Of a stretch of 64,000 nucleotides of DNA, positions 4,301-63,525 are shown one piece after another (position 1 is the first letter of the stretch; each line of letters opens with the position of its first letter). This DNA comes from Stylophora pistillata. Lineage: Eukaryota. The stretch spans positions 1,252,785-1,316,784 of the forward strand of contig NW_019217784.1 in the NCBI RefSeq assembly GCF_002571385.2. Reading direction: 5' to 3'. The position numbers and the translations under genes were made by a program. Below the pieces are notes generated by a model. The model worked only from the letters and a program-made list of their open reading frames with translations. It was not told where the DNA came from and made no database searches.

Positions 4301-6853
4301 CTCCTGCCTCTTGTGTTAGGGATCCAATGTACTGACCTTGCTCGATGTTTAGCTCAAGACTAAGCCCTTAATGAGACAAAAAGGAAAATTCTTATTGCCA
4401 CCCAAGTTTTAAATTTTTTTATTCATACATGAAACAAATACTGAGTTGCCAAAGCACCAGACGTAAATATAAAAGTAATGTTTTATTTTTTCGCCAGTGA
4501 GACAACCAATCCCGAGGGAAGTACATTTCAAGCGTTCTCGTTGGGAGTTGAAATTGTGGCTAATGCTTTCTGATTGGCTTCTACCTCTGATCGAAAAATG
4601 AAACATCTTTCACTAACAATCACTCTGCTAAAACTTTTTTACCTTCTTTAATTTTATTAAGTCATGTCTAGTTATTTTGAAAAGTTTTGGAGAGCATTTG
4701 GGAATGACTTCCACAGCATATCAGAGGGAAAGCTATCTTTCGATTAATTAGGCCTAAATATCAAACACTGACAAACCGAAAAATGGGCCCGTTTCGCTTG
4801 AATTAAACAATATGGTTCTCTCTCCTTGATCATTGTATCCTCCATTGAAAATGTAGCAATTCCCGTATGCATAATGCCAAAAACGATTCCAGTATCTTCT
4901 GGTATGATTCCTGAATCAAAAGATCAAAGCAATTTTACAATACGTTTAATGAAGGAGAGTTACGATCTTTTTAAAATATTTTCTCTCTTCGAGCTGTAAC
5001 GTCAGTAATATACGCAAAAGACCTTTTGAAAAATAGTTAAAAAGCTGCCTAATGAGCTTAAAATTCGTAATCTTTGTTAAAAGATTCTTAACCTGAATTC
5101 TCCAGTAATTCTTAGAATGATGATTCACTCGTGACCTATGAATAGGGAGCATATTGAATTTAATTAATAAAGAGGGTGACTTACACACAGTTGATTCCAC
5201 GAAAGGAGCAATAAATCATAAAGTCTTCAAACTGATGGCCTAACTCTGCGAGATCATGATGAATATTTGTTTTGGCTATTTTGGTCATAAGTTTTTCTAT
5301 CCTTATAAATTTTGCATCCTCTTCCTCGTCATCTTCCTCTTCAGGTTTTGATTCTGAAAGAATGATAATATTCAAGTCTCATTTGAATTTCTAAATATTA
5401 ATTTCTTTATATCATGTCCTTTCCATAGTGCAAGAGTACTTTGGTGAAAATTTTCTTTTCCAATGTGCACGGTTTTAATCTTTACAAGTTAACTAGTTTA
5501 GTAAATCTCCTGTTGCTTCGCTTTTGTACTTACTTTCGCCATCTTCATCTTCCTCGTTATATTTTTCTTCAGGTTCTGCTGATAAAATTAAAGTCTCGTT
5601 TGAATTTTTGAACATCTCTCTCTTTATGTCATTTCCTTTCCATAGTTCAAGAGCACTTTTAATCTTTACAAGTTAACTAGTTCAGTAAATCTCCTGTTAC
5701 TTAGCTTTTGTACTTACTTTCGCCATCTTCATCATCCTCGTTATGTTCCTCTTCAGGTTCTGCTGTTGAAAGAATGATAATATTCAAGTCTCATTGGAAT
5801 GTTAGAATATCTCTTTCCCCATGTACAACAGTACTTTGGTGAAAATTTTCTTTTCGAATATGGATGGTTTTAATCTTTACAAGTTAAATAGCTCAGTAAA
5901 TAGCCAGTTGCATCGCTTTTGTACTTACAGTTCAACCAATCTGTTCCTTTCATCTCTCTTCTAAGTGCTTTGGCGGCAGTAGATTCCCAGTCTTTTACTG
6001 GATCGAGTCTCAAAGAGTTCATGTCGCAAACTGTTATGGCAGGGAACGTCAAATCCTAAGTTAAATAAGAAAACAGAAAAGATTAGCTGAACAACCGTTA
6101 AGAATATCCAAGCATTTCACGCAGAATTTCTCTTGCATTCGTTAACTTCTCGAACGTGCACGCCACACATCTTTTTCGTGGTACAAGTGGAAAAGGGGTG
6201 GTAGAACTTTTTGCTTTTCCTGGGGAATTTGCTTCGTTCAAGCATTACAAGGCTACATTGGAATCCTGACTAACACGTTTGATGGCGTCATATAGGGTTA
6301 CCCTGACGACCAAATCCACATCAAAATGCTCCAATCCTGTTGATGAACGAGGAATTTTGACTGACGAAAGTCATCTTTCAAGAACTGAGATGATCAAAAC
6401 TTTTTTCAGATCACCAATATCCTTTAATTGTTATGTTGGTGTTGTTAGATAGATTATACACCAGAAAGGAAGGAGTGAAGAAGTGAAAGCATAACACACT
6501 TGAACAAATAGCAAACAAACAAAGGGAGAAGAGGAAGCAAAAAAGGATTGAAAAGTTAATAGCTTCCCTTCTGGAAAATTCTATTTTCTATGTCAAAAAG
6601 AAAAAAAAGGTTTTATTACCGAGTCGCGCTCGATGTCAATATGAGTTGCAAGCGGTCGCTTCTGGTAAAGACTGTACAGCTGGTGTATCTGCCATGATGA
6701 AACACCTAACGCACCCAGCATCAAAATTATCCACAAGACTTTTCTGATCCATTCGCGAGAGTTTATAATTCTTTCAGCTCCATGCATTGAGGTGTGTCCA
6801 AAAAAATCGGACAGCAGTACCGAAACAGAAAGACGGTCATTCTTGTTCTCCAT
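1320..6853 (-). CDS. DEG/ENaC channel subunit, paralog B (complete, 14 coding exons, inverted relative to the rest of the cluster)
   Basis: Exon 1 (6853-6620) has the pre-TM1 HG motif (HTSMHG) and TM1. Later exons give FPAITVCDMN, GHQFEDFMIYCSFRG, YGNCYIFN, GLSLELNIEQ...GVRIDI, the thumb cysteines (ACKKTC..CGC..CPPPC), FFEELNY and TM2 MSDLGGSLGLWIGMSVLTFAE. All exons splice in frame. Confidence 0.92.
1706..1834. mobile_element. Degenerate MITE-like repeat in the last intron of paralog B
   Basis: Imperfect inverted ends (atcaatgtcaa ... ttgaaattgat) enclose a C-rich arm (cacccaccccacccc) and a complementary G-rich arm (ggggaggggaggggt). Confidence 0.4.
5355..5928 (-). repeat. Intragenic tandem triplication (~185-bp unit) containing two 45-nt acidic mini-exons (5718-5762 and 5534-5578)
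   Basis: Blocks such as ttttaatctttacaagttaa, cttttgtacttac and aagtctcattt/ggaatt recur three times. Each mini-exon is bounded by ag/gtaagt and reads EPEEEHNEDDEDGE or EPEEKYNEEDEDGE. Confidence 0.85.
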
Positions 6854-23854: not shown

Positions 23855-23893
23855 TAGACCACTTTCATAAATGGCTGCCGCATTACAATTCTT
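23855..23893 (+). mobile_element. Start of a nested MITE (same family as 39513-39697), running into the gap
   Basis: gaccactttcataaatggct is identical to the TIR at 39516. Confidence 0.7.
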
Positions 23894-24211
23894 NNNNNNN
23901 NNNNNNNNNNNNNNNNNNNNNNNNNNNNNNNNNNNNNNNNNNNNNNNNNNNNNNNNNNNNNNNNNNNNNNNNNNNNNNNNNNNNNNNNNNNNNNNNNNNN
24001 NNNNNNNNNNNNNNNNNNNNNNNNNNNNNNNNNNNNNNNNNNNNNNNNNNNNNNNNNNNNNNNNNNNNNNNNNNNNNNNNNNNNNNNNNNNNNNNNNNNN
24101 NNNNNNNNNNNNNNNNNNNNNNNNNNNNNNNNNNNNNNNNNNNNNNNNNNNNNNNNNNNNNNNNNNNNNNNNNNNNNNNNNNNNNNNNNNNNNNNNNNNN
24201 NNNNNNNNNNN
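23894..24211. other. Assembly gap (318 N)
   Basis: Run of N. Confidence 1.
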
Positions 24212-24401
24212 CTTAGGTCAGTGCATCAGATAAAAGTCCAAGTAAATGCAAAATCTAACTTAACTTGGTCAACTTTTATAGCTTGAGGTGCCTTAATTTA
24301 CCCTGATTTATCTGAAGCTTAATGTTTTATGCCCAGCAAAGTGATTATGCTAGTTTACACATTGTATGTTTTTATTTATGTTTTTACTAAAAATGTACTG
24401 A

Positions 24402-28968: not shown

Positions 28969-31900
28969 ATGGAGATGCAAGAGTTAAGAAGCCATGATGG
29001 ATCAGAAATCGAACATGAGAGAAACGCAAAAGACTTGCTCTGCTCTCTCATCAAGGACTTCTGTGACTACACATCTGCGCATGGCCTGGGAAGGATAATG
29101 GCGGCTACACATTGGGTGCGAAAAGTACTCTGGATCATGCTCCTTTTGATTGCGATGACGATTATGACGATTCAAGTGCACGTTTTGTACTTAAAATACC
29201 AAAGCCGGCCTCTGACTACCTTGGTCACGGTTGAAACAGCCTCGGTATGCCAGTTCCAATGCTATCGCCATTACTTTTTGACTCTGTAAGGATTGAGCTT
29301 CAAAGGGACACTGAAACCCAATCGTTATATTTCTATCAGGCATGCGCGAACTACGGCACTATGCACTACATGAGCCACTATGGTTCTACGCTCTGAGTAT
29401 CGAAGGTCTAAACACAGGCAGCGATTTTAAGTGCAGCGGCTTTCAACCGGTCAAAACTTATATTTTGATTCAGAATGACAGAGGTAGGAGTGCAAACGTT
29501 TCGCTCCCAAAAAATACCGCCTTGGCAAAAAAATAAAATGATTGTCTCTTTGCCAGGACCTTTTTGAAGCGCTTCCCCTCGATACCAAGGCTTTAATCTT
29601 TTCTATATACTCTCGTCCACGTTCGTGTTATTATTTTTTTATGGCTTCAAACAGATTCTTGGAAATGTTTTAACTTTCCTGGAATCAACTTCATATTTCT
29701 CAGAGCCTCCCATTTCCAGTTGTAACACTCTGCAACTTCAATGCTCTCCGAAATGATTCTCTACAAGCTGCTAAAGAAGATGGAATGGACATTTTCAAAA
29801 ACCTCTTCACAGGAGAACTTGGTAATGCTGACAAAAATACTGCTTTATAGTGATTATAGTCCTGCTAATAAGCAGGCATAAAATTCTAGTGCCCCGTTTA
29901 AGTCTATTTGTTGCACACATTGGTCATGAGAATCTAATGAGTTTCTAAACTCTACCAGGGTATATTTCTTTCCAATTTGTAGTTAACTGGATGACGCAGA
30001 GACATTATTAGCGGACATGGGCATACACCTCTTACATTGTTTTCGTGTTTATCTTACGCTAATTCAGCCAAAAACATCTCAAGTAACCGGAGAAAACGAC
30101 GATCAAATGATCCTGCTCCAACTTTAGAAAGCCTCGCTAATCAGGAAGGTTCAACATATGATTCTGATGACGATGATGACGAGGACTTTTCTTGGGATGA
30201 CGACGAAGACGAAGAGTTTCGCGATCCGTTTAAGAAAGACCCAACCTTTTTGAAAAAGGAGCAGTTTGCTGTTCTTATGGCTAAGGAAGATCTTTCACTA
30301 TTAAGCATGATAGGTCACCAATTTGACGACTTGGTTTTGTCCTGTACATACAGGGGTGTCCCATGCAAGTAAGTTGTACAGTAGCTACTTTCACTGACGT
30401 GAAAGGGCAATTTGAATATCAACTTTTATTCTTATCGGTAGTTGTGGTGAAGACAAGACGTTAGGCAAAACGTTTGAGAATTCCAAAAAGATTCTTAGCC
30501 TAGAGTTTGTACGCCCATACTTCTACCAAACTTCAGCGAAAAAAATGTCTTTTTTTAAATTCTTCACTGAAGAAACTTTAATGCAAAGGTACAACCGCTT
30601 TGGAAATAGGAGCCATTCTAAATGGAAGAAGCGATTTTTCCAAGCCTTAGAACACAACTAACAGACAAGAAGGAAAAACTTGCTTGCTCTCTGACCAAAT
30701 AAGTTTAATATTTTCCTTTTTGTTTCAGGAATTTCTCCTCTATTTTTTGGAGGAAGTTTTGGCATTACAAGTATGGCAACTGTTTTGTATTTAACAGTGG
30801 CAAAACAAAATCAGGGGAGAACGCACCCATCCTAAAATCCAACAAACCAGGACCATCTCATGGTAAAATACGCGTCTAAGTTACACTTATACAAACCTAT
30901 ACTTAAACGCAAAAAGTAAATCAACTGAAGACGATGAAAGTTCTATCTTATAAGTTTCAATTTACTAACTAAAAATAACCTCTTCGTTGGCCAATTAGGA
31001 TATGCAAACGATTCCTGAAAAGAGCGTAAGCGAGGAAAAAACATTGATTGACTCTTCTTTGATCTCATCCATACCTTTAAGAGAGCGGTGAATTTGCGTC
31101 AGATTTCAAGTTTTGTTAGTATCCTTTATTTCTGGACTGTGTACGTGAAAATGGTGATGCCATTAGCGAGCGCAAGGTTTTGTAAGTGCCACGTAAGAAC
31201 TAAACATGGTGTATCTGTGTATTCTTGATCATGAGCTCCTGTGCAACTCACTGACAGGTCTGGCCATCATCAGATCCGTAAACAACTGTCAAGCAGCCGT
31301 ATTTGAATCTAAACGATGATAATAAATATTTATGCTTCTTTTTAGGACTTATCTTGGAACTTAACGTCGAGCAGGAGGAATACGTAGGACAAATGAGTCC
31401 AGAGGCGGGAATCAAACTTGATATTTCTCCTCATGGTGAGATGCCCTTTCCACTGGAAAGAGGCCTGAGTCTTGCTCCAGGATACGCCACTATGATTGGG
31501 ATGAGGAAGGTAAAAGAATTCAGCAACCTGATCGGCCAGAAATGACATCTTTCGGTAAACAAAGTCGAACTGAAGGATCTTTGCAGTTGGCAACGACCTC
31601 AAGTGCAGCACAGGCCCACGAATATGAGTTTGGAAAACCAAGTACTTCGACTTTAGCTTAGTTTTCAATGTCATTAAAACATAAATGAAATAACTAGTGA
31701 AGAAATGATCCCCGCATGTAAAGTAAGATCTGGACGGGATACGAACCCGAGGGTCGCTACAACCAGCTGAGCTGCGAAGCCAAATATTAAGAGTGAGGCA
31801 AATTATGATGGGCCTTTCGTTCCCACAAGTAGCTAAAATTGTTTCGAAGTGTTATTCTGTTATTTATAGGAAGTGATAAAGAGAGAGGATCCATTTCAGA

Positions 31901-33720
31901 GTAAGCGATGTTTGAAGGAGGTGACCAAAGATGAAACCAACTTGTATACAAAGCACTTTGGAGCAGTTTACTCTTCAACGGTACAATGCTGTTAATTATG
32001 ATATCGTCGTTGCCACCTGCCTTGTTGTTGTCGTTCAAAAAAGTACTACAATCCTCTAATCCTATTTTTTGTCTTAAAACTCACCTCAGGCATGTAGAAA
32101 ATCTTGCTTGGCCTACAATCAGCTTAAAAGGTGCCGATGTATGCAATACCAGTTTCCAGGAAGTTCCAATTACGGTATCTGTAACGTCATCGACAAACCA
32201 ACACGTAAGTCTCTTCACACGACTTATCCAAGCTTAATTGTCGTTTGGTAGATTTCGGAATAACTTTTGTTATCTTCAAACAAAAATTTAACGCAAATTG
32301 GATTTCATCTTTTTTTTCAAAAGTCAAATGCCTCAGCGGTGTCCAGAAGATGTTTAAAGAAAACAAGTTAAACTGTACTACATCTTGTCCGCCACCGTGC
32401 AGGTAAAGACAACTAAAATTACAGGCAACGTCCAGAGAAAGTCATAAAACAAAGGAAATTTTATACTTAAACTTTTATTCTGGAACGCAGAACTAATGAA
32501 AATGCACTAGAAAAAGATCATACGAAAAAAAAAATTGCAAATTAAAAACAAACATTTTAAGTAATCAGCATTTCTGGCACTCTCAGAAACAGAGAAAAGT
32601 TTAAATCTAACTTCACATTGGAGTTGACGAGGCGTTCCTCTTATATGTTTCAGTCGCATAACAATTAATTTACTTCCCGATGAGAGAGACACAACAAAAC
32701 GTGTTCTCATCACGTGTCATACAGGAAATTGATAGTGAGAATATGCTGATACTCAGTTCTTTGGTTTGTTATCAGAGAAGAAGGTTACAAGATGAGTTCC
32801 TCGTTTGCTCTTTGGCCATCGGAGAAGTATGAGGTACAGCTGATGGTTACTGGTTATTTTTTTGAATGATGGTAACCATGACAACTTACTTCAACCTCTT
32901 TTTATCTTTGCTTTGGTCCACTTGCAGCCAATCTACGAAGAGGCTTTGCAGAAGGAACACAAAATTTTGTTTACCAAGATAGGTTCATCTCACAGGTAAA
33001 TAATATTAATATCAAGGGACGACTGGAGCTTCACAAGCAGGACGCCGGCCCTTTACGGGAGTACCTGTGAAGAGATAGGAAGTGCTTTACAGAATAAGCC
33101 TAACGCATTCATTATTTTGAATCCAGTCAAAAATATCTTTTAATAAATTAGTTGAAGCCATTTGTGTGTCCTTTTTTCCTTCACTATAAAGGAAAAATGT
33201 TTGCAAGTTACAAGTATTCTATGAAGAACTCAACTTGGAGATGATAACGGAACAGCGATCGTATGAGGTATGCATGTTAAGGGCTGAGCCCGTTAACTCT
33301 AAAAAGTGATAAACATTTAACTTCTCCCCATGATATTCATACATCATCCAGCAAAGGGGCTGTAACAATTAAAATGTATGATAAAACGTGCCAGTTTTTG
33401 TTTCAAATGTTGAGGTTGACGAATCTGGACAATTGATATAAAATTTAAAATAATCCGGAAAGCGTCTAAAAAAGTCTGGAGAGGGTTCTCTCGAGTGCTA
33501 ATCATGGTAAAAGGGCTCAACGAGTGTTTCTGTCCGTTAACAGATTGAAGACTTCGTATCGGACATTGGCGGCCAGTTGGGTCTGTGGATTGGTTTTTCT
33601 GTGCTGACTGCAGCTGAGTTCTTAGAGCTGTTCATGCTCATATTCCACGCAGTTTTAAAGAGCTGTGGAGCCAAAAAGACACAAAATTCAAACCACATTC
33701 ATCAGGATAGTGTGGCCTAA
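28969..33720 (+). CDS. DEG/ENaC channel subunit, paralog E (complete, 12 coding exons)
   Basis: YTSAHGLGRI plus TM1 (to 29244); FPVVTLCNFN; finger exon with RRKRR and a poly-Asp tract; GHQFDDLVLSCTYRG; YGNCFVFN; thumb cysteines; TM2 VSDIGGQLGLWIGFSVLTAAE; TAA ends at 33720. Confidence 0.92.
31703..31782 (-). mobile_element. Degenerate tRNA-derived SINE head fragment
   Basis: Minus strand reads tggcttcgcagctcagctggttgtagcg...gggttcgtatccc, with A-box and B-box-like motifs but an internally deleted cloverleaf. Confidence 0.45.
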
Positions 33721-33748
33721 ACAGAGAAAGCTATGGAATTTCCCTAAC

Positions 33749-33997
33749 CAGGCGCGTAGCGTGGTCATTTTTTCAAGTACGCACAAGTACATATGATCTA
33801 GAAACCTAAGTAAACTGAGCGAAAAATACCGCGTTCTTTATTTCTTGTTCGAAATAGTTGTGTGAATACAAGCAAAGAACAAAGCGTCTCGCCCTTATTT
33901 TGAGCAAACCTGGCGCAAACACAACATTGTTTTCAAAATTTTCTGGTCACAGTCAAGTACGCACGTGCGTATATGCGTATAGGACGCTACGCGCCTG
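33749..33997. mobile_element. MITE (hAT-like CAGG termini) with a 5-bp TSD, 28 bp after the stop of paralog E
   Basis: TIR caggcgcgtagcgt / acgctacgcgcctg; CTAAC duplicated at 33744-48 and 33998-34002. Confidence 0.85.
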
Positions 33998-41674: not shown

Positions 41675-44600
41675 ATGGAAAATACAAACCCCTTTCAACG
41701 GAAAAACGAGTTTGAGATGTCCGTCAGGGAAGGAATCAAAGGAGCTGGTGAAGACGTCAGCCAAGATCTTTCGGATGATGAGGAAAAAACGTATTCTGTA
41801 CGACATTTAATTCTGGACTATTGTGAATACACGTCTGGCCATGGTCCTCCGCGCATCGTCGCCTCAAAACAAATGATAAGAAAAGTATTTTGGACGTTGT
41901 TATTTCTTGCAGCATTGGCGGTGTCTTCATGGCAAATAAACACTCTGTTTGATACGTATAAATTACGTCCACTGAGCACTCATGTCTCGATAAAACATGA
42001 AACGGTATGTATATTTCTTTCTTACGAGGGCTCTAAATTTAGATTTCACAGAAAAAGCAAGCAGTGACTTTGTAAATAACTGAGTGCAAGTCCAGGTTCA
42101 TTTACTGATCATAGCATTGTGTTTGTGTTTTGGGGCAAAACCCTCTTTCTCACAGCGCCTTCTCCACTTAGGAGTAAAAATGGGCGCCATAACTGTCAGG
42201 GAACTTTCACAAAATATTGAGGATTGGCATCCAATCCGGGTCAAGCTCCATGATATGAGTGCAACTTGAGCGACTGCACACACTTAAGTTTTTAATTCTG
42301 TTTTCAATCTTTAGTTGTTTAATATTGGAGAGGTGCTTACTCTGTGGACGTGCTGAACGTTAATCACCGGTTTATCAAAAACTGTTTAAGATCTTCTGAT
42401 TATTTTTTCAGAGTCTTGACTTTCCGGTGATTACGATTTGCAACTTCAATGCTGTGAAAATTGGTAAAATTGAAGATTTCCCTGAGGATCTGAAAAAGGA
42501 CATTCAGGCAGAAACTACCAGTAAGAAATATGTGCCTTAAATCAATTATAAAGTCACTTTACTGTGCTCAGAACAAATTTCCTACATCCAGTGGAAATGC
42601 AAGAGGGTATTGTTCGCGGGATGGCAATTTGATGTATGGACAGACATAGCTTATTTTACACAGCTTCACTCCCATGATTAACTTTCCTTACGCGAACACC
42701 TTAAGATAATTATGTCCCAGTATTCATCGTAGCGACGGGGCTCCATCTCAAATTTTAAGTTTTGATTTTAAGTTTAATCTTTTTGTCTTGATTTCTTAGA
42801 CTCTTCTGGAAAAGATAAAATAACCTTTAAATCAACGTTCCAGGCTGCGAGCTTAGTACCCTGCTTTAAATCAGTACAGGCCTTTCGTGTAATATATTTT
42901 GTAATCTCTGTGATTGTTTTCATTATCATATACTTTTCATCATTATTATCATTATCATCAGTATTATTATCAATATCATAGGCAATAATTCGCCAACACG
43001 AGGAAAGAGAGCAGTAAACCAGCCCCCCTCGTCCAATAGTCCAAACAATATTGACGTCTTAGAGGAAGAAGAGGAAGGATTTGAGAACCCGGATGATCTG
43101 GATGAAGATTTCAAGAACAGGGAACAAATGATAATGATAATGGCTGAGGCTGGGGTCGAGGCACTAAAACCTCTTGGTCACCAGTTTGAAGAGTTTGTCT
43201 TGTCGTGCAGATATCGCGGAATCTCGTGTGTGTGAGTTTGCAATCTTCTCGTAAATTGCAAATGAAGAATAAGAAGCACTTTCCTTCCTAAAACTGTCCA
43301 AGGTCATACTTTGTCTGGACACGGTCATGTCATAAATCAGCTCACACGGAAAAGCCACTAACGACTAGTTTTCTTTGCTCTCGCCGGTTTGGCCCCAAGC
43401 CCAATTCCTAAAATTCAGGTCGCAGGCATCAACAAAGCAATTTAAGACGATGAATGGCAGAATTTTTGTCAAAGGCCTTTGGAGCGTTATTTCAGCTTTA
43501 TTGAGTATCAGATTAACAGAGTTCTTTTCCACAACTGCAGCGGTAACCATGGCGTGCTTTTTCTTGATCTGCATAATATACGTTGTATGGATTCTCCATA
43601 TTTTCCCGTTTTTATTTTTTCCCTTTTGTCAAAATCAAAGTGAATTTTTAATTCTAATTGGATTATTATTTTCCAAGAAATTTCTCGAGTTCTTACTGGA
43701 CACGCTTCTGGCATTATACCTACGGAAACTGTTACGTTTTTAACGCTGGTAAAGATAAAACAGGAAAGAGAGCTGCCGTATTGAAGTCTAACAAGCCTGG
43801 ACCATCACACGGTAAGATAGCTGTTTAACTCAATTTATATTGATTGTTTTAAAGCATAAAAAACTCTGAACTCTGATTCCTTTACTTACGAGTGCGTAAA
43901 ATGTATTAGGAAGCATTTCTAACGACTAATCCAAGGGAAATCTTCAGAAACAGAGCCCAGAAATGATCCCAGATACATTAGGGCTGTAATCTCGCTGAAC
44001 GATATGGTTGCCAAGAAACGACATTTCTTGGCATTTACTCCGCTGACCAGGAAGCCAAATGCTAGCAGGCTTGAAATGGCGATCTCGCGTGAACACTAAA
44101 AATATTGAATTCGTTATCCGATAGCCAAGCGCATATTGTTCTAGCCGTTTACGGCCTGCTGAATAATCAGTTATAATCTGTAGAAGAGAACTTTCCAGAC
44201 ATAAGGAAAGTTTCATTTCCTTAAAAACGTCAGTCGAAAAGAAGTTGACCTAAGTAACTACCTTTGAATTTCATTAATGGAGCGGCTTCTTCTTTCAGGA
44301 CTAAACCTCGAGCTAAATATTGAGCAGGACGAATACATTGGAGCCTTTACAGAGGAAGCTGGGGTGAGGATAGACATATCAAATCAAGGAGAGATGTCGT
44401 TTCCTCGCGAGAAAGGACTCAGCGCGGCTCCAGGATTTGCCACGTCAATAGGAATAAGAAAGGTTAGCACTCTTCAAGTTAAATTTGTAATCAAGCAATG
44501 TGTTATCGAGTATCTCAAAGAATTTGTAGGTTTTTCAGGCAAAACTCGTTTAAAGAGTTTTCGCCCACGGTTGCCTGTTCGATGGTACGAGTGCTCGACT

Positions 44601-47600
44601 TCAGTTCCAATGGTCCGAGGTAGAGGGAGTTTGGCTGGGCATTTGCTTGGTAGTTTGGCTAGGAGTTTGCCGGGAAGTTTGCCTGGGAGTTTGGCTAGGA
44701 GTTTTCCGGGAGTTTGCCGGGAGTTTGGCTAGGAGTTTGGCTAGGAGTTTGCCGGGGAGTTTGCCGGGGAGTTTGCCGGGGAGTTTGCCTGGGAGTTTTC
44801 CGGGAGTTTGCCTGGGAGTTTGCCGGGGAGTTTGCCTGGGAGTTTGCCGGGGAGTTTGCCGGGGAGTTTGCCGGGGAGTTTGCCGGGGAGTTTGCCGGGG
44901 AGTTTGCCGGGGAGTTTGCCGGGGAGTTTGCCGGGGAGTTTGCCGGGGAGTTTGCCGGGGAGTTTGCCGGGGAGTTTGCCGGGGAGTTTGCCGGGGAGTT
45001 TGCCTGGGTGTTTGGCTGGGAGTTTGCCCGCGAGTTTCGTTGGGAGTTTGGCTGGGAGTTAGCTGGGAGTTTTGCTGGGAGTTTGGCAAGGTCATTGTGT
45101 CGTGTTTCTTGAAAAGGCACTTACTCCCCACAGTGCCTCCACCAAGCCTTGGAGTATAAATTGTACCTGGTAGGTGTCAGAGAGGCCGGATGACATACTG
45201 AGAGGGTCTGGGGCGTTGGTCTAGCATTAACTATATGAAAGGATAATAACCCATACGACGTTTAATGCTAAAGAAACCGAGTTTTAAAATCTTCGGCAGT
45301 AAGGGCCAACCGGTTTGTTCGCGGGCTTTTTTCAACTAGATTAATTGTCAGCTTAACCATCGTTACCTACTTTTGAAGTCGTACTTTTATTCTAGAGATG
45401 TTTTTTTTTTTAAATTATAGGTGGAGATCCACAGAAAGGACCCATTCACCAACAAACGATGTCAAAATACCTTGAGTTTGAGCGACGCCAACCTCTACAA
45501 TTATCACTTTCAAGTAAATTATTCAGCCACGGTAAGGAAAAGTAAAAGATGGGGAGAATAGCAAATTTTCACTGGGTACAATTAAACCTTAAATCAGCAC
45601 GAAGAGTGCAGTCTTCGTCAGTCATAAAGACTGCATTCATGCAAATTGTATTCTATAGAGCGTATCCAGATCATTTAGGAAAAAATATATATAAAAAACA
45701 TTGTTTACCGTGCATTTGTCAGTTCAAATACATTTTGAATTCCCTTCTCTTTTTGCGATACTAAGCTGCCAGGGTAACAAGAAAGGGTCTGCTAGCTTGA
45801 TGTCATTATCATTTTCATCATCGTCATCATTATTATCTCATACCACCACGTTTTTTACCTCTCGTCTCTCATAAAAGAGAACCCTTGGTTGAAAAAATCT
45901 TGAAGTACTTGAAGCGTGTGAAATCAATCCGCTTTCTTAAAAACCAGTGAAGAACAACAACATACAGTTTTGGTTGACATGTCCTGATTCCAGCCTTTTT
46001 AGACTCATTTCGGATCATTCGTCCTACACAGGCATGCAAGGAATCATGTCTCGCTTATAATCAGAGGAAAGAATGTAAATGTATGGAGTACAGATTTCCT
46101 CTTCCTAATGACAAGACCCCAGTTTGCGACATTCTAAATAAAACAGTCGGTAAGTATTAATGAACTAGCTGTTTATAACCTTGAGGCATTGAGATAGAAT
46201 GCGGAACTTACTGATTTCTCTAAGATTTTTCAGCAGGAGTTATACCCCAGGCAGGGTCAATGATATTGCAAAGGCAAATTTGTGGAGGGCGGAGGGGGAA
46301 TCTTTATTCAAGGTATTCAATCACCTGGCCTGACCTGGATGTTTGACGAAGGGTGAACAACCCAACCATGTAAAAATTACTTTCATGGAAATACAACGTT
46401 GTAGTTACCAAGGGACCTCAAACCTTCCTCACGCTGGATTCACTGGCGGAAATTAAGTCAATTGTAAATCGTTAATCTAAAACAGAGATATCCCTGTGCA
46501 CCGAAAAATTACAATTGAGTTGTGGGATGCAAGAAGTATGCACAGGTTACTAAGGAGAGGAATGATAAAGAAGTATTGATGGAAATTACGTCGTAGTTTT
46601 TTATAACGAGGTTCATAGCCTATTTGTTTCTTTGTTTTGTCGTAGTTAACTGTCTCAGCAAAGTACAGAAGGCATTTAAACGAAATGAATTGAACTGCAC
46701 GTTGTCATGCCCACCACCCTGCAGGTAAGAGTAGAGTGACGAAGTGTCAGAAGCGTCAGTCAGTTTATCATTCTGTCTGCCAGTCTTTCGGTCACTCAGG
46801 TAGTCAGACAATCAGACTCTAAGTAAGTAAGTCAGTCATTCAATCCACAGTCTCTCCGTCAGGTGTGGAAGTCGGCAAGTCGTGCACGCGCTTACTGTCT
46901 GTCTGTCTGTCTTCTGTCTCTCTATCTGTCTGTCTGTCTTTCTGTCTCTCTGTCTGTCTTTCTGTCTCTCTGTCTGTCTTTCTGTCTCTCTGTCTGTCTT
47001 TCTGTCAGCCAGTTGGTAACTCAGTCAGTCACTTAATCGGGAAGATAGTCAGCCAGTCAGTCCGTTAAGGGGTCAGACTGTCTCTCAGTTTGTCCCCAGG
47101 TAAGCAATAGTGAAAGTGATCTCAAGCTTATTCTTACCTGAATTTTCGTAGGGAGAGCATATTTCAGCTCTCGTCATCATTCTCAGCCTGGCCTTCCAGT
47201 GGTTACAAGGTTTGTAACAGTTCTTATAATTCTATTACTGTGTGAAAATAATGTTCATACGAGCTATACCTTCTAGCTTGGTAATTTGATCTCATTTCGG
47301 CCGCAGATAGAAGCGCCTAACACCCTCCTTAATCAATGTGTTTTTTCGATATCTAAATTTTCTTTTGTCTTAATTTCTTCTCTTTTAGCCTTTTTATATT
47401 GACAAGCTCAACTCTCAGGACAAATCTCATAACCTCGATTTTAATTCAAATTCAAGGTAACTACCTGCCTTTTTATTAATTTCTCAAAATTACTTTCCAC
47501 AAAATTTTAAATAGAGCACCTCTACTGGTTTGTATCCCATTATGTTGACAGCGTAGATTATACAGAAAATCTTTGTAATTGTTAATATATTTTTTGAATG

Positions 47601-53981: not shown

Positions 53982-55082
53982 CTATCTATTTGATCTCTGA
54001 GTTGTAGTTCCCTGAGAAAGTAATTTCATCTGTGTGTCGTCGAAAAGTTTGACCATGCAATCGTGATCAACTGGCCTAATGAGCAAAATATTGGGATCAT
54101 CCTTACAAGGTTTATTATCATTATACATCAAAAACGTTGTGCTAGAGATGGGCTGAATACCCAAATCAGCCGCCAAGATTCCCACATACGCATCATCAAC
54201 TTTGAGTGGTTTCACAACGTCAAACAATGGAATAAATTTCAAGACCAGATCCCTCGAGAGCACATAACCGCCTCCTGATATGTAATCTTTGTAAACATTT
54301 TCGGGATGATCTTCTTCTGAAACACCGTAGAAACCATGGCGAAGAACAGGGTTTCCATGCATTAAATGTCCAAAATAAAAGTCTGTATTTGCCGTGCCGG
54401 TTTTGCTGAGTAACTCGATGAGACCGCGAGTATTTACGAACACGTCATCATCTGTCTTGAGCATGTATTGAAACCTACAGTACTTTGCTGCCCATTCAAA
54501 TCCTGACTGAATCTTAAACACTTTATTTGTAAACGTTTCAGCGTAGTCACCCTGGATGATGTCGCCAAATATCTGTGCTTCGCGCGAGATGCGATAGGAA
54601 ATGTCAACGCTTCCAGCTTCGCCGATGAGAAACACCGTCTTCCATTTCCGATGAAGTGCGTTATCCGTTCCCCAGGTATGACGAATAACCATTCGGTCTT
54701 TGTATGCTTCAGGAGAGCTAGAGACAAGTATTATGAGGAACAAATCTTGCAGACACTTTGTTCGTGTTAGTAGACGGGTACGATGTTTACGTATTTTAAG
54801 CCAAGAGTCAGAGAATGCCTCATCAATTAAGTGATTGTCAACAAAGCCCGTTTTGTCTCGACCGCTTCGTCTGTGAAATGAAGTTCCGCCTGTAGTGAAC
54901 GTAAACCCACGCTTGCCCATTTGACCTTCTTTCTGCACTTTATACTTCATGGACTCCACATAATTTGTTAGTCCTTGACTAGTGAGCCAAAGTGAAACAC
55001 ACAACATGGAAAGGGAAACGGTAATGCAAAGGAACAAACAAGAAGCCGCAGTCACAGTAAATGGACAAGACGAAGACTTCAT
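53982..55082 (-). CDS. Beta-1,3-galactosyltransferase-like protein (glycosyltransferase family 31), single coding exon
   Basis: N-terminal hydrophobic anchor; motifs RMVIRHTWG, GDIIQGDYAETFTN, KTDDDVFVN (DxD), YISGGGYVLS and VDDAYVG. First in-frame ATG is at 55082 (the ORF track start at 55112 is GTG). Confidence 0.92.
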   Translation of the reverse strand: MKSSSCPFTVTAASCLFLCITVSLSMLCVSLWLTSQGLTNYVESMKYKVQKEGQMGKRGFTFTTGGTSFHRRSGRDKTGFVDNHLIDEAFSDSWLKIRKHRTRLLTRTKCLQDLFLIILVSSSPEAYKDRMVIRHTWGTDNALHRKWKTVFLIGEAGSVDISYRISREAQIFGDIIQGDYAETFTNKVFKIQSGFEWAAKYCRFQYMLKTDDDVFVNTRGLIELLSKTGTANTDFYFGHLMHGNPVLRHGFYGVSEEDHPENVYKDYISGGGYVLSRDLVLKFIPLFDVVKPLKVDDAYVGILAADLGIQPISSTTFLMYNDNKPCKDDPNILLIRPVDHDCMVKLFDDTQMKLLSQGTTTQRSNR

Positions 55083-56188
55083 CGTGTCAATACTTTGTTC
55101 CTTTGAGTCCACGAAAAAAACGGCAATTCTTCCTTTTTTCGAAGTTTCATTAATGTAACTGAATCAGTTCCGCCACCACTGAACGGTTAAGTTTTACGAC
55201 AGCGCTTCGAAGACCAACCGTCATCCTCGCGACAGTTCATTATGTAAAATATTAACCACGCAATATGTGGTATTAACCAAGATTATGTGACAAAATCTCG
55301 CAAAACGAGGAATGCTGAAATTCCAGATTCCTCATTCAACGAATCGTGTCCTAGGCAGCTTCAGTTACAAAACTTTTTCGCTTTCTTTTACGACTGATTA
55401 CATCGAAACATCAGCGAATTTTTAATCCAGATCAATTGCATAGTAATTAGTCAGATATTGTTTGGGTTGACAGATATTTTTTTTTCATATTTATTGCATT
55501 CCCCTTTCTCATCAAGAGTAATTGTTTGAGTTGGTTTTGTTCTGCTATTATTCTGCGCCCTCTAGAAACACTTTTTGTCATTTTAACGCAAACGAAGTGC
55601 CTTAACGTTTTTTAAAACCTAATAGTATTAATATCCTCTTCACAGTTGAGTTTGTTGTTGTTATACTTGTATATCACAAAAATCGATGTCAAGTTTTCAA
55701 GAAAACAAGTGGGCTTGCCCCAATAAAAGAACCTGTTAAGATTTTATTCGTTTTTTTCAGTTACTACTTCGTTTTCTTATTAAGTCCTGGGGAAATTGTT
55801 AAAAGTCTCGAGACGACAAAAAGCATATGAAAAGAGAATCAATTTTTATCATGGCTTCTGTTTTTGTTCGAGTTCAAAAAAGCTCAAAGCTATCCTGTTA
55901 GACGGAAAATATCCGAAATCATCAAAAAAAAAAAAAAAACTGACGACAGACGACGGAAGAAAGTTGTTTAAAGAACGATGACGTCAGAATTGGGGCAGAA
56001 ATGTCCGAAAAGGAACGATGGCGTCCGAAATCGGAGAGGAGTTTCCAGAGTCGAATGAAGGAGTCCGAATTCGAACGATAGTTTCCGAAAAGAAACCTAA
56101 AAAGGTCAAAACTGTCCGAAATCGGACTAAAGTGTTCGAAATCACGGAGAACTGTTTGAAATCTGGTTTCGAAAAAGACGGAGAAAAT

Positions 56189-56324
56189 CAGTGGGGCGGG
56201 GCCGGGGGCCCGGACCCCCACTTTCTTATTTTGGGTAAAAAAATAAACGCAGAAGGAAGAAAAGCCGGCAGGTTTACACCCCTCCCCCCCCCCCCTTTTA
56301 GCTGAAGGTCTGCATCCGCCACTG
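56189..56324. mobile_element. Short MITE with CAGTGG termini (left TIR partly deleted)
   Basis: cagtgg...ccgccactg ends, with G-rich and C-rich complementary subterminal tracts. Confidence 0.6.
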
Positions 56325-56732
56325 ATATCTACCTTCAATAGCCGTTCTTTCCATGTCGACACGATTTTGTATGTATTTCTGAAAGTAAATTCCTGGCTGG
56401 TTTTTCCTTTTTTACCACATGTTTTCACTGGTTTTCGAGAGGATTGTGGCTATTTCTGTCAGAGTGAAGCTCGTATCTTTGGAATTTTGGGCGTGTTCTT
56501 CCAGTTCTAAGAATCGGAAAGTGTTTTCTTTCTCTCCGATTTATTTTAATTGTTTTAACAAATACGCTGAGAAAATGGATGTTAGAGCCTCTTGGAAATC
56601 ATCAGTGCTGTGGAAGTTAAATTCTTACTTTATTGGGGGCCAGTAGCTGTGAATTCGACAGATAAACGACTCGGGTTCCGAATGATTCAATAGATTCAAG
56701 TGCTACATTGTAAATAATTTCAGGAAAGAAAA

Positions 56733-58580
56733 CTAAACAACTTCTGCGTCACTGAAGTTTTCTAAGATCACTACCACATGTTTGTTTTTTCTTCGCCAGA
56801 GAGCCCAATAACTAGAAGTATAGATGTTCACTATCGATCCTATCCAAAAAGTGAAAAAAAATAAGAGTCCAGACGCAATTCCCGCAATTCCTAAACTCAC
56901 TGCAGTGTTGCATTCTGATTGTTTACTGTAATGACTGAGAAGGAATCCAATACCGGAAACTTGAACACATACCATCCCAAGAAACAAAACATTGAATATC
57001 AGCATGGCAATGTCGTTTGCTTGCATAGGAGGGCATCGCCACTGCAAAGACAGAGAACATGAGATAAAATTATATTTTAAAAAGTTTCACAAATAATTTA
57101 ACGACAAAGGAAGGCAACGTATACGCAAATTCATGTGAAATCTTGGCATCTCAACTCACATCTGACATGAACTGAAATAAAACAATCAGCTAAGACCTGC
57201 ACATGTCATCATCATTATAATATATAGACTTAGCCAAGGCTAAAAGCGGAGCTCCCAAGTTCGTAATGTTAATGATAACATAAAAGATGTGCATTTGCCA
57301 AGACTCGCCTGAGACACCCATCCCTTCGTTTTGATAGTCTCCCCTACCCTACCCATGCAATCTGAAGGCACGTACGTACGCTCGGTCACTCACGTGACAA
57401 CCAAACGAAGAGGTTGACCATACTTCATGGGTATGGGGCTCTGCCTCACGCGCGCTTCGCGCGCGTGGGAGCCTCGCTATTAATTCTGAACCACCACAGG
57501 TCATCCAAATTACAGGGTTCGTACACTTTTTCAGGTCAAAGATTCAAGGACTTTTCAAGGACTTTCCAGGACCCTACTTAGAAATTTCAAGGACTTTTTG
57601 TAATGACAATTTTACCTCAAAACCAAGAAAAATGTTTCTGTTAACATTTATGTTTTGGGTTTACCGATGGTGCAAAACAAAAGCAGATATTTTTCGATGT
57701 TGTTCAATAAAAAATCAAAGACTTTCAAGGACCCAAAACGAAATTCAAGTACTTTCAAGGCCTTGAAATCGGCCTCCTGAAATTCAAGGGTTTGCAAGGG
57801 TTTTCAAGACGCGTACGAACCCTGAAATTAGTATATACTCAAACAGATGATAGCATCGAAGGCGCGCTCTGAACTCTGACTCTCCTTCGCTATTCACCTC
57901 TTAGCATTTGCGCCAGAAAATATTGTAAGCGTTGCAGGAATAGATGAATTTAAATCGTCTTTATGTGCTATATTAACTCTAAAACTATTGTTCACCTATG
58001 TCGGTGGCTAACGCTGGATATATGTCTCGCCGTCACTCGCCTCCAATTCGGTGAATAGTGGTTGACTATTCCAAATGGGATCTCTAAGATGAATCTGATT
58101 CATTTGGAATAGCCTCCGAAAAAAATGATGGAGAGTGAAGATCATGCTACAACAAAAGAAACGCGACTCTAGTTTCATTTCACCCTCACATGCTGAAATG
58201 AATTTGTTACGTGTCATTCAATTTTAGTATTCAGCACTTGGAAGAGTTTCAAGGTTTGGTCAAAAGAATGTTGAAAAATGGAAAACTGTATAATGAAATA
58301 CCTTTTTGATAGGCTTGTAAACTCGTCTAATGCGGAAACGAAAATGACAAATTGGACACGAGTTGCTGTGGACTGAATTTAACCACAACTCCAAACAAGA
58401 TTTATGCACTTTTCCCATCGTTCCTTTACACCAGCAAACTTTATGTAAAGGTTCTTGACCTTGGTCCTTTCCACCGGTATTGTGGCAAATCCGACACATC
58501 GGTGCATCTTCGCCCAACGAAATGGAGCTTAAAGAGCAGGATACTTGAAGTATCGCTGGACTCTGATAACCAGATGACAT
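56733..58580 (-). CDS. MARCH-family (RING-CH) membrane E3 ubiquitin ligase, MARCHF2/3-like; exons 58580-58302 and 57041-56733
   Basis: C4HC3 RING-CH CRICH...CWCKGTMGKVHKSCLELWL...CPICHF; exon 2 has two hydrophobic helices, then W..WRRKN and a C-terminal EVV. Confidence 0.9.
57513..57824. mobile_element. MITE (hAT-like CAGGG termini) with a 6-bp TSD in the MARCH intron
   Basis: TIR cagggttcgtac / gtacgaaccctg; AAATTA duplicated at 57507-12 and 57825-30; many internal ttcaagga subterminal repeats. Confidence 0.88.
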
Positions 58581-59043
58581 TGCAGCTACTTCGCGGTGTT
58601 ATTTGCAGCGCGTAAATTGTGGGCTAAATCCAGAACGTCACAGAACAATCGATTAGTTACCATGACAGCCTGAGACGAGCGCGCGCTGTTAAGGCTGTCC
58701 GCGAAGTTTGAAAAGATGGCTGGATAATTATGTGCGAGGCAGAAAATCTGTCCAACGGTTTTTCTTTCTTTAACTTAGAGACGGACCATGATATAAAAGT
58801 GATGGAAGAGAAATATAATTAAGTAAAAAAAAATGATTTCCTAGAGAAAACTTGAACTGGATTTTGTCGAAAACGAGCTAAAAAACAACGAGCAAAAACA
58901 AAAATTAAAGTAATCAGTTAACAAGATGTCAAAATGTGTAACCTGTTGATTTATTCCTCTACTTTATACCTAGTAAAGATGTAATAAAGTAGATTTTAAA
59001 GCTAAGTTTTTATTTCCATCTTAAGCTGACTCGTGCAGGACAT

Positions 59044-62000
59044 TCATATTGACACTTTAAGGCGCTTAGCGCCAACATCTGAAAAGAAAAAAAAAAGTAC
59101 AGTATTTTAGCATGTTTGATGAATTGTGTATCACTACCAATGTGGAATAGAGACTCATATCCATGGGAGGAAAGTGGCTGCCCACAACCGAGCCTAGGAG
59201 AGAATTGAAAAGCGATGGAGCCGTAACAAAAACTCAAAAAATCACAGCTAACACACTGAAATCTCTGACCCAACAAGCTAAAAGACAGGAGGGTCACTTG
59301 CAATTACTGCAACAGGGACTCTACTCTCACAACCCTGGCATTGAACTTATCTGCCTTTCTCAGTAGGAGCTGTTATTCCCAACCCTGAACCATTTCCCTG
59401 CAGGGCTTTGATTTCTCGAGATTGTTGTATGCTTATTCATTATTTTCCAGCTATTCTGTGAGCCATAACAAACGAGTGTGTGTGAAACGATGTGACTTCG
59501 CGATTTCAAGAACACTCTTCTGCTAGAAAGTTACTCAAAGGATGGTAACCCTGTGGTTTGACAGTCATTTGTCATATAAGTGGACTATGTAAATCGTTTT
59601 TGATGCACAGACATACCAGTCACATAGCAGACTTCTACATTAGCTCCAAGAGACTGTAAAACATCCAGCCAGATTTGTTGTTTAGTAGAAAGCTTGTCTC
59701 CTGGACCCTTCACTTCAGCAATCTGACGTTGAGAAAAAGAAAAAAGTTCTCTGTTCACCTAAGGTGACATGATGACAAGATGAACATTAAAAAAAATCAC
59801 CTAATCCATAGCTGTTAGTCTGTAAAGATTTCAGCCACACGGAGAACAACTTCATTGGAGAGCAGAAAGCGCTCCGTCATTGTTTTGGTTTTGCTTTACA
59901 AAGCTCTGTGATTGGTCTTGATATACCGCGCCAACTTTGCAGCCAATCGAATACAAAAGTTACACCCAATCATAACTAAATGTAAGTTAAAGTTTTTCGC
60001 ACAGTTTGCCACGCTTGAAATCGTTTGCTTGTTCTCATTGGGTACCCAAGCCGTTATACTAAGTTTTTCTTCTGGTCTTCTGGTCTTGCAATACTAAAAC
60101 AAAAGCAGTTTATTGGAAAGACGAACCAAGTTACCATATAATCCAGAGTGGATGAATTCCATACAACCAGATCAGGCATACCCGCGCGACTATAGCGGTA
60201 TCCTTGAGCAAACTGAGTGAAGATCCCAGACATTATCTGACCACCCAGGCAGGCTACGAGTTGCTACAGAAAGACAAATTATCATTCATAATGCATGTTT
60301 ATATCTTCAAACATGGATTCCCTGAACCTGACGCAACGTTAATTATCTTGAAGGAATTCCCATTCACATATGTGACCAACCAACACCCAAAAAGAAAAAG
60401 AGCAACCAAAAATATCCTTTTAAAACGAATACACTAGTAAATTCACGAGAAAAAATTCCCAATATCATCCACCTACTTGTGCTTGTTCCATACTAGTGAA
60501 GCGATCCCAGCTGAGTCCTGCACAAACCTGCCCTTCCTTATCGTTCCAAGCTTTGGCCAGAATGTCCTGAAGTTCCTGCCAGAAAATGTTCGTACAACGA
60601 AAAACTTGGTTTAAATAAGTCTTTTGCTTTAAGCAGACCATATTTGACGGACTACTTAACATAATAATCATTACGTTTCGTTTTCATGTAGACGACACAA
60701 AGAAAGATTGAATGCATTATCAATCACATGTACCTCAACTGATGCTAAGGAGATTTCCTCCAGCCTCTTGTCGATAATTTCTTTACGACTTTCGTAAAAT
60801 GCATCACAGCAGAAGTCCAGAGGAGCAGCCTAGGAAAAAAACACAAAGAATTAAACAGATACTAATTTAATTTCTGCAAATAATAAATTAAAAGAAAATA
60901 TTTGCAGACTTTTCTTCTTGGTTGAAAATAAGCTAATGGATATTACTAAAAGTGCTTTACATTGTGTGCAATTTCAGAAAATAACCACAGGAGATTGAAA
61001 AGGAACGAAGTTCCATACTTGGAATGGACTTCGAAAAACATCTGGAATTCCACTTGCAAATATGATGTCCCACGTGAATAAGGTATAAAGTGATGAAAAG
61101 GTTGATCCTTCACCATGAATTCCTTGCTCAAACCCCTTCTGGCGATAATAAGACAGAGCATATTCTTCCACTGCACAGAAGGTTGTTGTACCATCAATTA
61201 CTTGGCCACCTTGATCAATCTCGGGGGCAATGAAAACACCTAGCTCAGCACATCTTGTGCCAGATATAGTGATCTGCAAGGATGGATCCAAAGCAAAACA
61301 GATCAACCATCTTATTGTATTTTGAGCAAGCCATTTCAAAACCAAAACCATTGAAAAAATCAAAGTAACACCTACTGAAAGACTTACACTCTTAGATGGA
61401 TTTGGTTCGTCTAACTCCAGGTCAAAATAATCTTCACATTTCTTCTTCTTCCCTTTGGTGAATGCTGGTGAAGAGAGGATGCGCTTGGCTCTCTGCACCA
61501 GGGCAAGACGACGCCCAAATCGCACATGTTGGTCAGAGAGTGCTTCCCTGATGACCTGCATAGCCTTTGAGATAAATAACAAAACACTGATATTGGCCCT
61601 CTAACTCATAAGAGGGTTTAACACCTAATTTCTCTTCACCATATCACTGCTGAGTCAAACATCATTTACATGGGAACCACTTAATTGTTAAACACATTCT
61701 CTTCATTGGCACTGTAAGAAATATCAGTTATAGAGAACAGTGCAGAGGTTATGGGAACTGAATGCAGAAGTTAGGGTGTAAAGAGTAAATCTTTCATGTC
61801 ACAGATCAGCCCAGAAAAATTGAACAGGGTGCCAACCCATGGATGTGAAACCCTTACATTTACAATAAGCTGTAACAACATTATTTTTGGTTAAACATTC
61901 CAGTTGTCCCTTTCCAATCTTTGTTCTTTTGAAAGTAATGAATGAAAAATGAACAAGGACATACCTTTTCGGGTTTTTTTAAGTGCTGATGCAGATTTAG

Positions 62001-63525
62001 TGCAAGTCTGTCATACCACCTTCCACGCGAATCAAAGCAAAATATGCTTTGTTGAAGCAGACTTTCAAGTTGCTTGACAGCTTCATCATACTGTCGCCAC
62101 TTCTGTAACACCTCCACTCCATAATAACACATCTTTGTAATAGCCCACTCTGCAGTAAAGCATCGCAAGTGTTCTGGGAGGAGTGCAGCAGGGGTTTCTG
62201 AACAATCTTTCAGCTTGGCCAGAATAACATCAAATTTCTTTGAAGCTTCTGGATAGTAACTATAGGCTTTTTCAAAGTTCTTATCTTCAAGTGCTACTAG
62301 CATCTCATACTTCCGCTGACATGCTTCAGAAAATTGGATGAGGCCTTCACGAGAGTGGAAAACTGGTGTTGGTCTATCAATCACATATCCTGGATAGACA
62401 ACTTTGCCAATATTAGCAAGGTAGAGCATTGACCTGAAAATCAGATGTACAACACATTGCAAAGCATCAGACAACTTACAGCAAGTATTTAAAATTAACT
62501 GCAACTGGAGCATACTGGTGACAAAAACTCGGGTTTGTGTGACTTAAAGATTTGTTATTTGAACAAAGCAGCCCTGAATAGACCAGTTATGGTTATTCAA
62601 AATTGTAAAAGTTTGGAAGATTGCTAAGTTTTTTCAAGCCCTAATTCAAAAGGAAGGAGCCCCACCAAAATAGGCGAGCAAGAAAAAGAGAAGAGGCTCC
62701 CCTTCTCACCCTGGCTGCTCTCTTACTTAAATATCTACTTGAATCATTCAACCATTTTCTTCATTTTAAAAACTGGTATCAGTTGACATTAACTGTTCAT
62801 TGCATACTTTTGTATGTACTAACAAGAATAGCAAAAGATTCTTACAATTGCTGAGCCTGTCCATTGTTTGAGGTGTCTTCATCATCAGGGCTGACATTCA
62901 TAGTAAACAACAAAAGAAGGCGGCTGAACACATCTTTGGGATGAGCTGCCAGTCTCACACAACAACCAAGGGCCTGCTTAGCCCTGCAAAAACAAATGAA
63001 TGGCAAATCAAACCTTCACAAAAGACAATAAATAAACATACTTTGGCTTTTCACTGCTGCACACCAGCAATTTAGCATGAGAGGTTCCTAATCAGATCAC
63101 TGGACAAGTAAAATGTTGGACAAAAATTGTTAAGATGTAGATCTCACACCTTTACACTTAAACACAGCTTGCTATTAAAAATTGACCATTTACTACAGCT
63201 GTAGTCATCTTTACATCTCCTAAGCAAACTACACAAACATGTACTGGTAAATGAAATAAATGGTATCTGTCATGAATACTCAGTCAACAGCCAGATTCTT
63301 ACAGGTACCTCTTCAAAACCACAGCTTTAAAACTTCCAAGGAGTGTTTTTTGGTGCTCAGCATGGTTAACAATCATTTCTATGGTGTCTTCCTTGGTTCC
63401 ACCCTTCTGACTTACAGATGTTGATGAAATATGAAGAGTTTTCACCAAAAGTTTTAAGTCTGGAGCCGCTGTAAGATTTAATGCCTCCTGGAGATCTGTG
63501 AGATGACTTTCATCTTCTACAAAAC
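59044..63525 (-). CDS. FAN1: Fanconi-associated nuclease 1 (3' portion; 5' exons lie outside the window)
   Basis: Exons encode the SAP-like [26 protein letters not shown]-region [60 protein letters not shown], and the VRR-NUC catalytic motifs GMPDLVVW and [17 protein letters not shown]. The last exon (59078-59044) reads [11 protein letters not shown]. Confidence 0.95.

Follow-up and report, generated by a model that had tools for sequence, protein, structure and literature searches.

A DEG/ENaC subunit of the coral Stylophora pistillata carries, in the finger loop of its ectodomain, a furin-type site that is under selection and, judged from its sequence, resembles a true proprotein-convertase site. 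The subunit (558 aa; P0006, RefSeq XP_022805884) is encoded by gene E, whose 12-exon coding span lies at 28969–33720 (+ strand) of the 64,000-nucleotide stretch of contig NW_019217784.1 that was analyzed (hereafter, the window). Because this site is selected, convertase-like, and placed in the loop that contains the proximal site in vertebrate ENaC, maturation of the channel by proteolysis is likely. As a counterpoint, the site is, by its distribution, dispensable in close relatives (Pocillopora gene A; paralogs B, C, and D).

Gene E and the furin-type site of its third exon

Translation of the 12-exon chain in the window reproduces P0006 exactly, and the 11 exon joints are present in RNA contigs (run X1). 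Based on its match to Pfam ASC (E=1.3e-93), predicted transmembrane helices at residues 49–79 and 501–542, and a GFS at 517, the protein belongs to the DEG/ENaC family (PF00858), which is recognized by two TM helices, an HG preceding TM1, a Cys-rich ectodomain, and a G-x-S in TM2. The AlphaFold2 model (mean pLDDT 73) has the DEG/ENaC fold and matches ASIC, ENaC, and FaNaC. The GenBank model P0001 (432 aa) lacks exon 1 (TM1) and exon 6, and gene E is included in this truncated form, as Stylophorapistillata108, in a published cnidarian DEG/ENaC set (PMC9822975).

Exon 2 (29704–29821, +) encodes the Cys102-bearing strand beta2 along with helix alpha1 of the finger, which together form the N-terminal anchor of the loop. 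Exon 3 (30068–30368, +) encodes the finger loop, including the furin motif and an acidic tract, followed by helices alpha2 and alpha3 and strand beta3; it reads in frame as AKNISSNRRKRRSNDPAPTLESLANQEGSTYDSDDDDDED, has AG/GT borders (phases 1 and 2), and shows a 100% match to a Stylophora pistillata protein. A single spliced RNA contig (run X1) connects 29820 to 30067 and 30368 to 30729, with no differing letters across exon 3, and these joints rule out mis-annotation or intronic read-through. Almost no depth was found over gene E in two raw-read runs, indicating low bulk expression; no splice variant without the furin-type site was seen in the one contig over exon 3 and these two near-zero-depth runs.

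The site itself, R139-R-K-R-R143↓S144 (30088–30105, +), has its predicted scissile bond (arrow) between 30102 and 30103. As the original prediction had it, the site is present in exon 3; it is in frame and spliced into mRNA. The core R140-K-R-R143 and S144 are encoded at 30091–30105, and apart from the overlapping R139–R142 register the gene E protein has no further R-X-K/R-R or R-X-X-R. Shuffling gave p=0.021 for such a motif within the finger loop, and a chance origin is made much less likely by the conservation of the motif. An N-glycosylation sequon, N134-I-S (30073–30081, +; N134 in 12/12 orthologues), lies nine residues before P1. Downstream, a poorly conserved 19-residue linker, S144–Y162 (30103–30159, +; pLDDT <50), is the predicted new N-terminus, and it is followed by the acidic tract D163–E181 (30160–30216, +), in which 15 of the 19 residues are D or E and which is conserved in composition while its length and sequence vary. 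The site had been described as standing directly before the poly-Asp tract; this was wrong, given that the tract begins 19 residues past the scissile bond. The conserved entry of helix alpha2, from D184-P185-F-K187-K188 to F192 (30223–30249, +), contains the sole candidate for a second, non-furin cut in the protein, the K187-K188 pair. Residues 144–186 have a net charge of −18.

In the structural model, residues 130–177 (pLDDT <50) lie between finger helices alpha1 and alpha2, in the stretch that is predicted to separate TM1 from TM2, and the loop holding the furin motif is predicted to be disordered and to lie on the luminal or outer side. Furin substrates need flexible flanks, and a limit on P1' volume is a listed criterion (PMC3281273). 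The gene E protein combines the core R-X-K/R-R and a small P1' with flanks that are predicted to be flexible, hydrophilic, and luminal.

At least eight DEG/ENaC genes, gene E among them, are clustered here in tandem: six lie in or touch the window (162–48281), and two more are located upstream (G000:C1:1220709-1253260). An assembly gap of 319 N (about 23890–24212) is located between genes D and E, and a high-copy repeat (33747–33997), where RNA depth comes from other copies, starts 27 bases past the gene E stop codon. Gene B has a degenerate second copy of the acidic finger exon (5496–5672, −) in the intron upstream of the used exon, and a gene F intron contains a ~12-base tandem repeat (44554–45176) that is open in two frames. 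The minus-strand neighbors at 53985–62543 are, by motif, presumably a galactosyltransferase-like single-exon ORF (53985–55163), a RING-CH ligase (56736–58598), and a FAN1-like nuclease (60057–62543).

Distribution of the site in anthozoans and distant relatives

A tree of 31 relatives places gene E among 12 rows that form a group with full support and include Pocilloporidae, Oculina, Montipora, and Acropora. Conservation among these orthologues, proposed as a check on the site, was borne out: R-X-K/R-R is present in 11 of the 12 and the twelfth has a minimal R-R-P-R. In the alignment, R140 is found in 12/12 and R142 and R143 in 11/12 rows. Mean column identity in this group is 0.83 at P4–P1, compared to 0.59 before the site, 0.50 after it (the linker), and 0.60 in the acidic tract. 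K187 is shared by 10/12 and K188 by 11/12 orthologues, and the KK pair is missing from the sister A group, where the furin-type site occurs in 6/7 rows. Three octocoral-type rows have the site without an acidic tract. Over all rows, the site is found in 22/31, versus 1/31 for the rest of the ectodomain. Of the 23 anthozoan proteins with the site, 21 have a glycosylation sequon no more than 20 aa before it.

Loss is also evident at close range. The site of gene A is lost in all eight Pocillopora orthologues among the matches listed. Among the cluster paralogs, it is present in A (just upstream of the window), E, and F, and absent from B, C, and D. The equivalent site of paralog F, R-G-K-R↓A (42999–43013, +; core 42999–43010), is followed by a short Glu tract, and paralog B has an acidic tract without the site. 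An innovation specific to paralog E was rejected, because three of six cluster genes and most anthozoan relatives carry the site. Elsewhere in the Stylophora genome, the site was found in one of 11 other multi-exon loci (one loop seen partly) and in none of 12 anchored single-exon loci (25 tried). The Stylophora orthologue of NeNaC2 (L048; G000:C244:333000-341000) has in its finger loop a run of Arg with a short run of Asp behind it, and the arrangement is thereby shared by a clade A channel.

To cover distant homologs, 50%-identity representatives were searched and the best 150 of 514 matches <1e-30 were retained, of which 144 were new and 98 had both loop anchors. Site counts left out 12 residues at the start of the loop and 30 at its end; a conserved R-x-R-R right after the beta2 Cys is structural and was not counted (its inclusion gives 40/98 from the best 150 of 514). 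At least one site was present in 38 of the 98 relatives (from the best 150 of 514), whereas shuffling predicts 3.5, and at least two sites were present in 10/98 of this set versus 0.25 expected, with two pairs only 7 and 11 residues apart. Lysine controls were rare in the 98 relatives from the best 150 of 514 (K-x-K/R-K: 4/98; R-x-K/R-K: 6/98), as was the motif in the rest of the ectodomain (1/71). Finger loops contained 50 sites where 3.4 were expected, and cytoplasmic tails contained 2 versus 2.0. Isolated motifs were directional (forward R-x-K/R-R: 21; reversed: 4; p=0.0009). P1' was small or polar in 44/50 sites (background 50%) and aliphatic in two (background 15%), and P2' was aliphatic in 20/50; furin has a P2' preference. 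Polybasic low complexity was rejected as an explanation by the Lys controls, the directionality, and the cytoplasmic tails. Search bias from the query's own motif was negligible, with a mean gain of 0.4 bits and a site in 35/88 proteins at a masked score of at least 190. A third homologue search added one further protein.

A fixed link between site and acidic tract was rejected, since acidic content after the site did not exceed that before it in 26 distant relatives (p=0.24). Tyrosine and tryptophan are enriched after the site (0.11 vs 0.04 before; 26 relatives, p=0.001). Post-site tracts are often Tyr-rich among acidic residues (P0034, P0067, P0104, P0139, and L044, the last having the tract without a site), and tyrosine among acidic residues is a context typical of tyrosine sulfation. 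The 19 hand-chosen site-bearing representatives include proteins from hemichordates, echinoderms, amphioxus, annelid, nemertean, mollusc, brachiopod, copepod, and Nematostella, and two-site forms are found in lancelet, hemichordates, echinoderms, annelid, nemertean, and mollusc. Eight relatives (P0050, P0074, P0089, P0097, P0113, P0123, P0154, and P0177) have extra LDLa, kringle, F5/8, Xlink, SRCR, or fn3 domains, mostly inside a very long finger loop and often flanked by furin motifs. In two-site forms with an extra loop domain, cleavage might shed that domain.

On an unrooted FastTree phylogeny of 113 rows, built with the loop excluded, the site trait needs 28 changes (shuffled mean: 36), 17 of which are forced by strong branches. 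With this many changes over 113 rows, the scattered distribution looks as if the site had been gained and lost many times over in a single permissive loop, and a single origin was not supported by either the 31-row or the 113-row tree, both read as unrooted. The site was found in 44/75 long loops versus 3/38 short loops, with 31/75 long loops lacking it; when 12 independent pairs were compared, the median p for the link to loop length was 0.06.

Possible consequences of the proposed cleavage for the channel

Vertebrate ENaC is activated by two cuts and release of a hydrophobic tract, one cut being insufficient (PMC8791634, PMC13488063). In gamma-ENaC, the cuts are made by furin and a surface protease, and the site pairs of alpha and gamma are reconstructed as independent gains (PMC8791634). 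The inhibitory tract is held by four aromatics (gamma F204, W229, H233, and Y425; PMC13488063), and the GRIP beta-hairpin, with its own disulfide, is defined in PMC6197857.

The gene E protein resembles ENaC alpha and gamma in its DEG/ENaC fold, and its best PDB sequence matches are human ENaC subunits (exon 2 alone gave only chance matches against PDB). By profile alignment count, P1 lies 41 residues past the beta2 Cys, compared to 38 in human gamma and 45 in human alpha; the range in the coral E and A groups is 34–48. By this matching distance from the beta2 Cys, and by its position after helix alpha1, the gene E site occupies the loop that holds the proximal site in vertebrates. In contrast, there is no Cys between 102 and 224, and consequently no GRIP disulfide or hairpin. 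Only one of the four pocket aromatics is matched (W229 corresponds to F192, H233 to E196, and Y425 to V401, whereas F204 has no counterpart), and the tract after the proximal site is acidic rather than hydrophobic. No distal furin site was found in the 17 site-bearing coral E and A rows, which have KK, KR, or RK pairs and one minimal R-E-E-R. Activation of the ENaC type, suggested at the outset, is therefore not supported (one site, no GRIP disulfide, one of four pocket aromatics). Nor is the suggestion that cleavage frees the acidic peptide, because the tract lies C-terminal of the single site and stays on helix alpha2. As far as its sequence tells, the gene E protein does not use the tract-release mechanism of ENaC.

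We consider it slightly better than an even bet that a single cut primes or tunes the channel without opening the pore, leaving the acidic tail un-looped yet tethered to helix alpha2. One cut at R143/S144 would be made in the trans-Golgi by a convertase of the furin/PCSK5 type; kexin-type convertase loci with prodomain and P domain were found on seven Stylophora contigs (unassigned to furin by name). The predicted products are chains of 16.4 and 47.3 kDa (unglycosylated), which would be held together by the beta-sheet and a Cys102–Cys250 disulfide, a pairing that we assume from ASIC/ENaC structures. They would stay assembled, given that the palm incorporates TM1, beta1, beta2, and alpha1, probably with a disulfide link. 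Because the tract is on the C-terminal chain, it would be un-looped and not released, so that a closed acidic loop becomes a free tail anchored at helix alpha2. The cut may relieve the strain that a long insertion places on the finger helices, and the negative tail beside the finger–thumb cleft may concentrate cations or a basic ligand, while the channel would keep needing its own stimulus. The reading without pore opening is favored by the need of ENaC for two cuts, the low conservation of the new N-terminus, and the behavior of NeNaC2, which has a like site and is reported to be proton-gated.

NeNaC2 has a single finger-loop furin motif, R-K-R-R-R↓S, which is also present in its Stylophora orthologue. 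In oocytes, where furin is active (PMC13488063), this channel is reported to be proton-gated and not constitutively active (PMC9822975). It differs from gene E in belonging to the other major clade (A) and in being gated by protons. The profile scores human ENaC above ASIC and gene E groups with NeNaC18, which fits clade B in the scheme of PMC9822975. NeNaC18 (P0052), which falls with the coral cluster, carries L-R-K-R-R↓Q in its finger loop, but a Thr/Pro-rich, mucin-like stretch follows the site in place of a poly-Asp tract; NeNaC21 has R-R-R-R↓G in this loop (both from PMC9822975 supplement 4). Fifteen NeNaCs were assayed in oocytes, and neither NeNaC18–21 nor any member of the gene E subfamily was among those reported (PMC9822975). 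The site is missing from NeNaC8, 14, and 15, which are functional channels of clade B (PMC9822975 sequences).

It is unlikely, though worth keeping in view, that the single cut is itself activating and raises open probability, either because the uncut loop presses the finger like a wedge against the thumb or because the new N-terminus is a tethered agonist. The site coincides in position with the proximal one of vertebrates, F192 is aligned to Trp229 in the pocket of gamma-ENaC, the gene E thumb is basic (16 K/R vs 8 D/E) so that the acidic tract could dock there, and relatives are enriched in Y/W past the site. Yet the new N-terminus, as the least conserved segment, is a poor fit for a sequence-specific ligand, three of four pocket aromatics are missing, the thumb of paralog B is equally basic without a site, and ENaC is not activated by single cuts (PMC8791634).

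We regard as quite unlikely that the motif is uncut, or cut without effect, and that the basic run is retained for a different purpose, for example to pair in charge with the acidic tract. Frequent site loss in paralogs would fit this, as would the polybasic tract at this place in human delta-ENaC, which is uncleaved (PMC8791634), and the conserved sequon nine residues upstream, whose glycan might shield the site. Charge, however, fails to explain a pattern that is Arg-specific, directional, and confined to the lumen, and site and acidic tract occur apart, the former in octocorals and the latter in paralog B.

Very doubtful is double cleavage, by furin at R143 and then by a trypsin-like protease at K187/K188 or an astacin within the tract, which would free a 44-residue acidic piece and activate the channel: the conservation of both lysines in the E group, the gamma-ENaC precedent (PMC8791634), the preference of astacins for an acidic prime side (PMC3186203), and the relatives with at least two furin sites speak for it, but the KK pair sits at the ordered entry of alpha2 (pLDDT about 70) and is missing from the A group, and the gene E protein has neither a hydrophobic inhibitory tract nor a GRIP scaffold.

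Possible protease processing across the DEG/ENaC family

A close parallel outside the cnidarians is an alpha-like, ENaC-related protein of lancelets (XP_019619098/XP_019623744; P0088 group), which carries furin motifs within the corresponding insertion and a Ser/Asp/Tyr-rich tract downstream of them. It differs from the gene E protein in having two sites ~37 residues apart (P0088, P0196), so that a piece could be released, and this spacing is in the class of vertebrate inhibitory tracts. The two motifs are visible in the lancelet outgroup rows of the alignment in PMC8791634 supplement 1, and no mention of them was found in the accessible portion of the main text of that paper. Furin, cleavage, protease, and trypsin are not mentioned in the main text of PMC9822975, nor are furin, cleavage, and proteolysis in its six text supplements, and furin had no match in the accessible portions of PMC10507113 and PMC9234716. 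A literature search, with most subscription journals outside its coverage, returned no paper on furin sites in invertebrate DEG/ENaCs. The family-wide pattern of furin sites is apparently unreported.

Proteolytic activation has been described as a feature unique to vertebrate ENaC (PMC13488063) and as having arisen with the move to land (PMC8791634). We tentatively raise the idea, with far less confidence than the reading preferred above, that cleavage of the finger insertion by convertases forms an ancient, so far unrecognized regulatory layer of invertebrate ENaC-like channels from corals to amphioxus, in which a single-site cut would unmask a tethered acidic or Tyr-rich regulator and a two-site cut would free a piece and gate the channel. 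If this is true, protease-gated DEG/ENaCs arose hundreds of millions of years before vertebrate ENaC and were not an invention of life on land. For paralog E alone the value of the finding is modest. What counts is the wider pattern: the furin signature under selection in this loop of corals, anemones, octocorals, hemichordates, echinoderms, amphioxus, spiralians, and a copepod marks the loop as a probable cleavage hot spot well before the move to land. The finding draws attention to the two-site lancelet protein, which served as an outgroup in the vertebrate study (PMC8791634), and a large set of orphan channels gains a cheap test, by exchange of two arginines or addition of protease.
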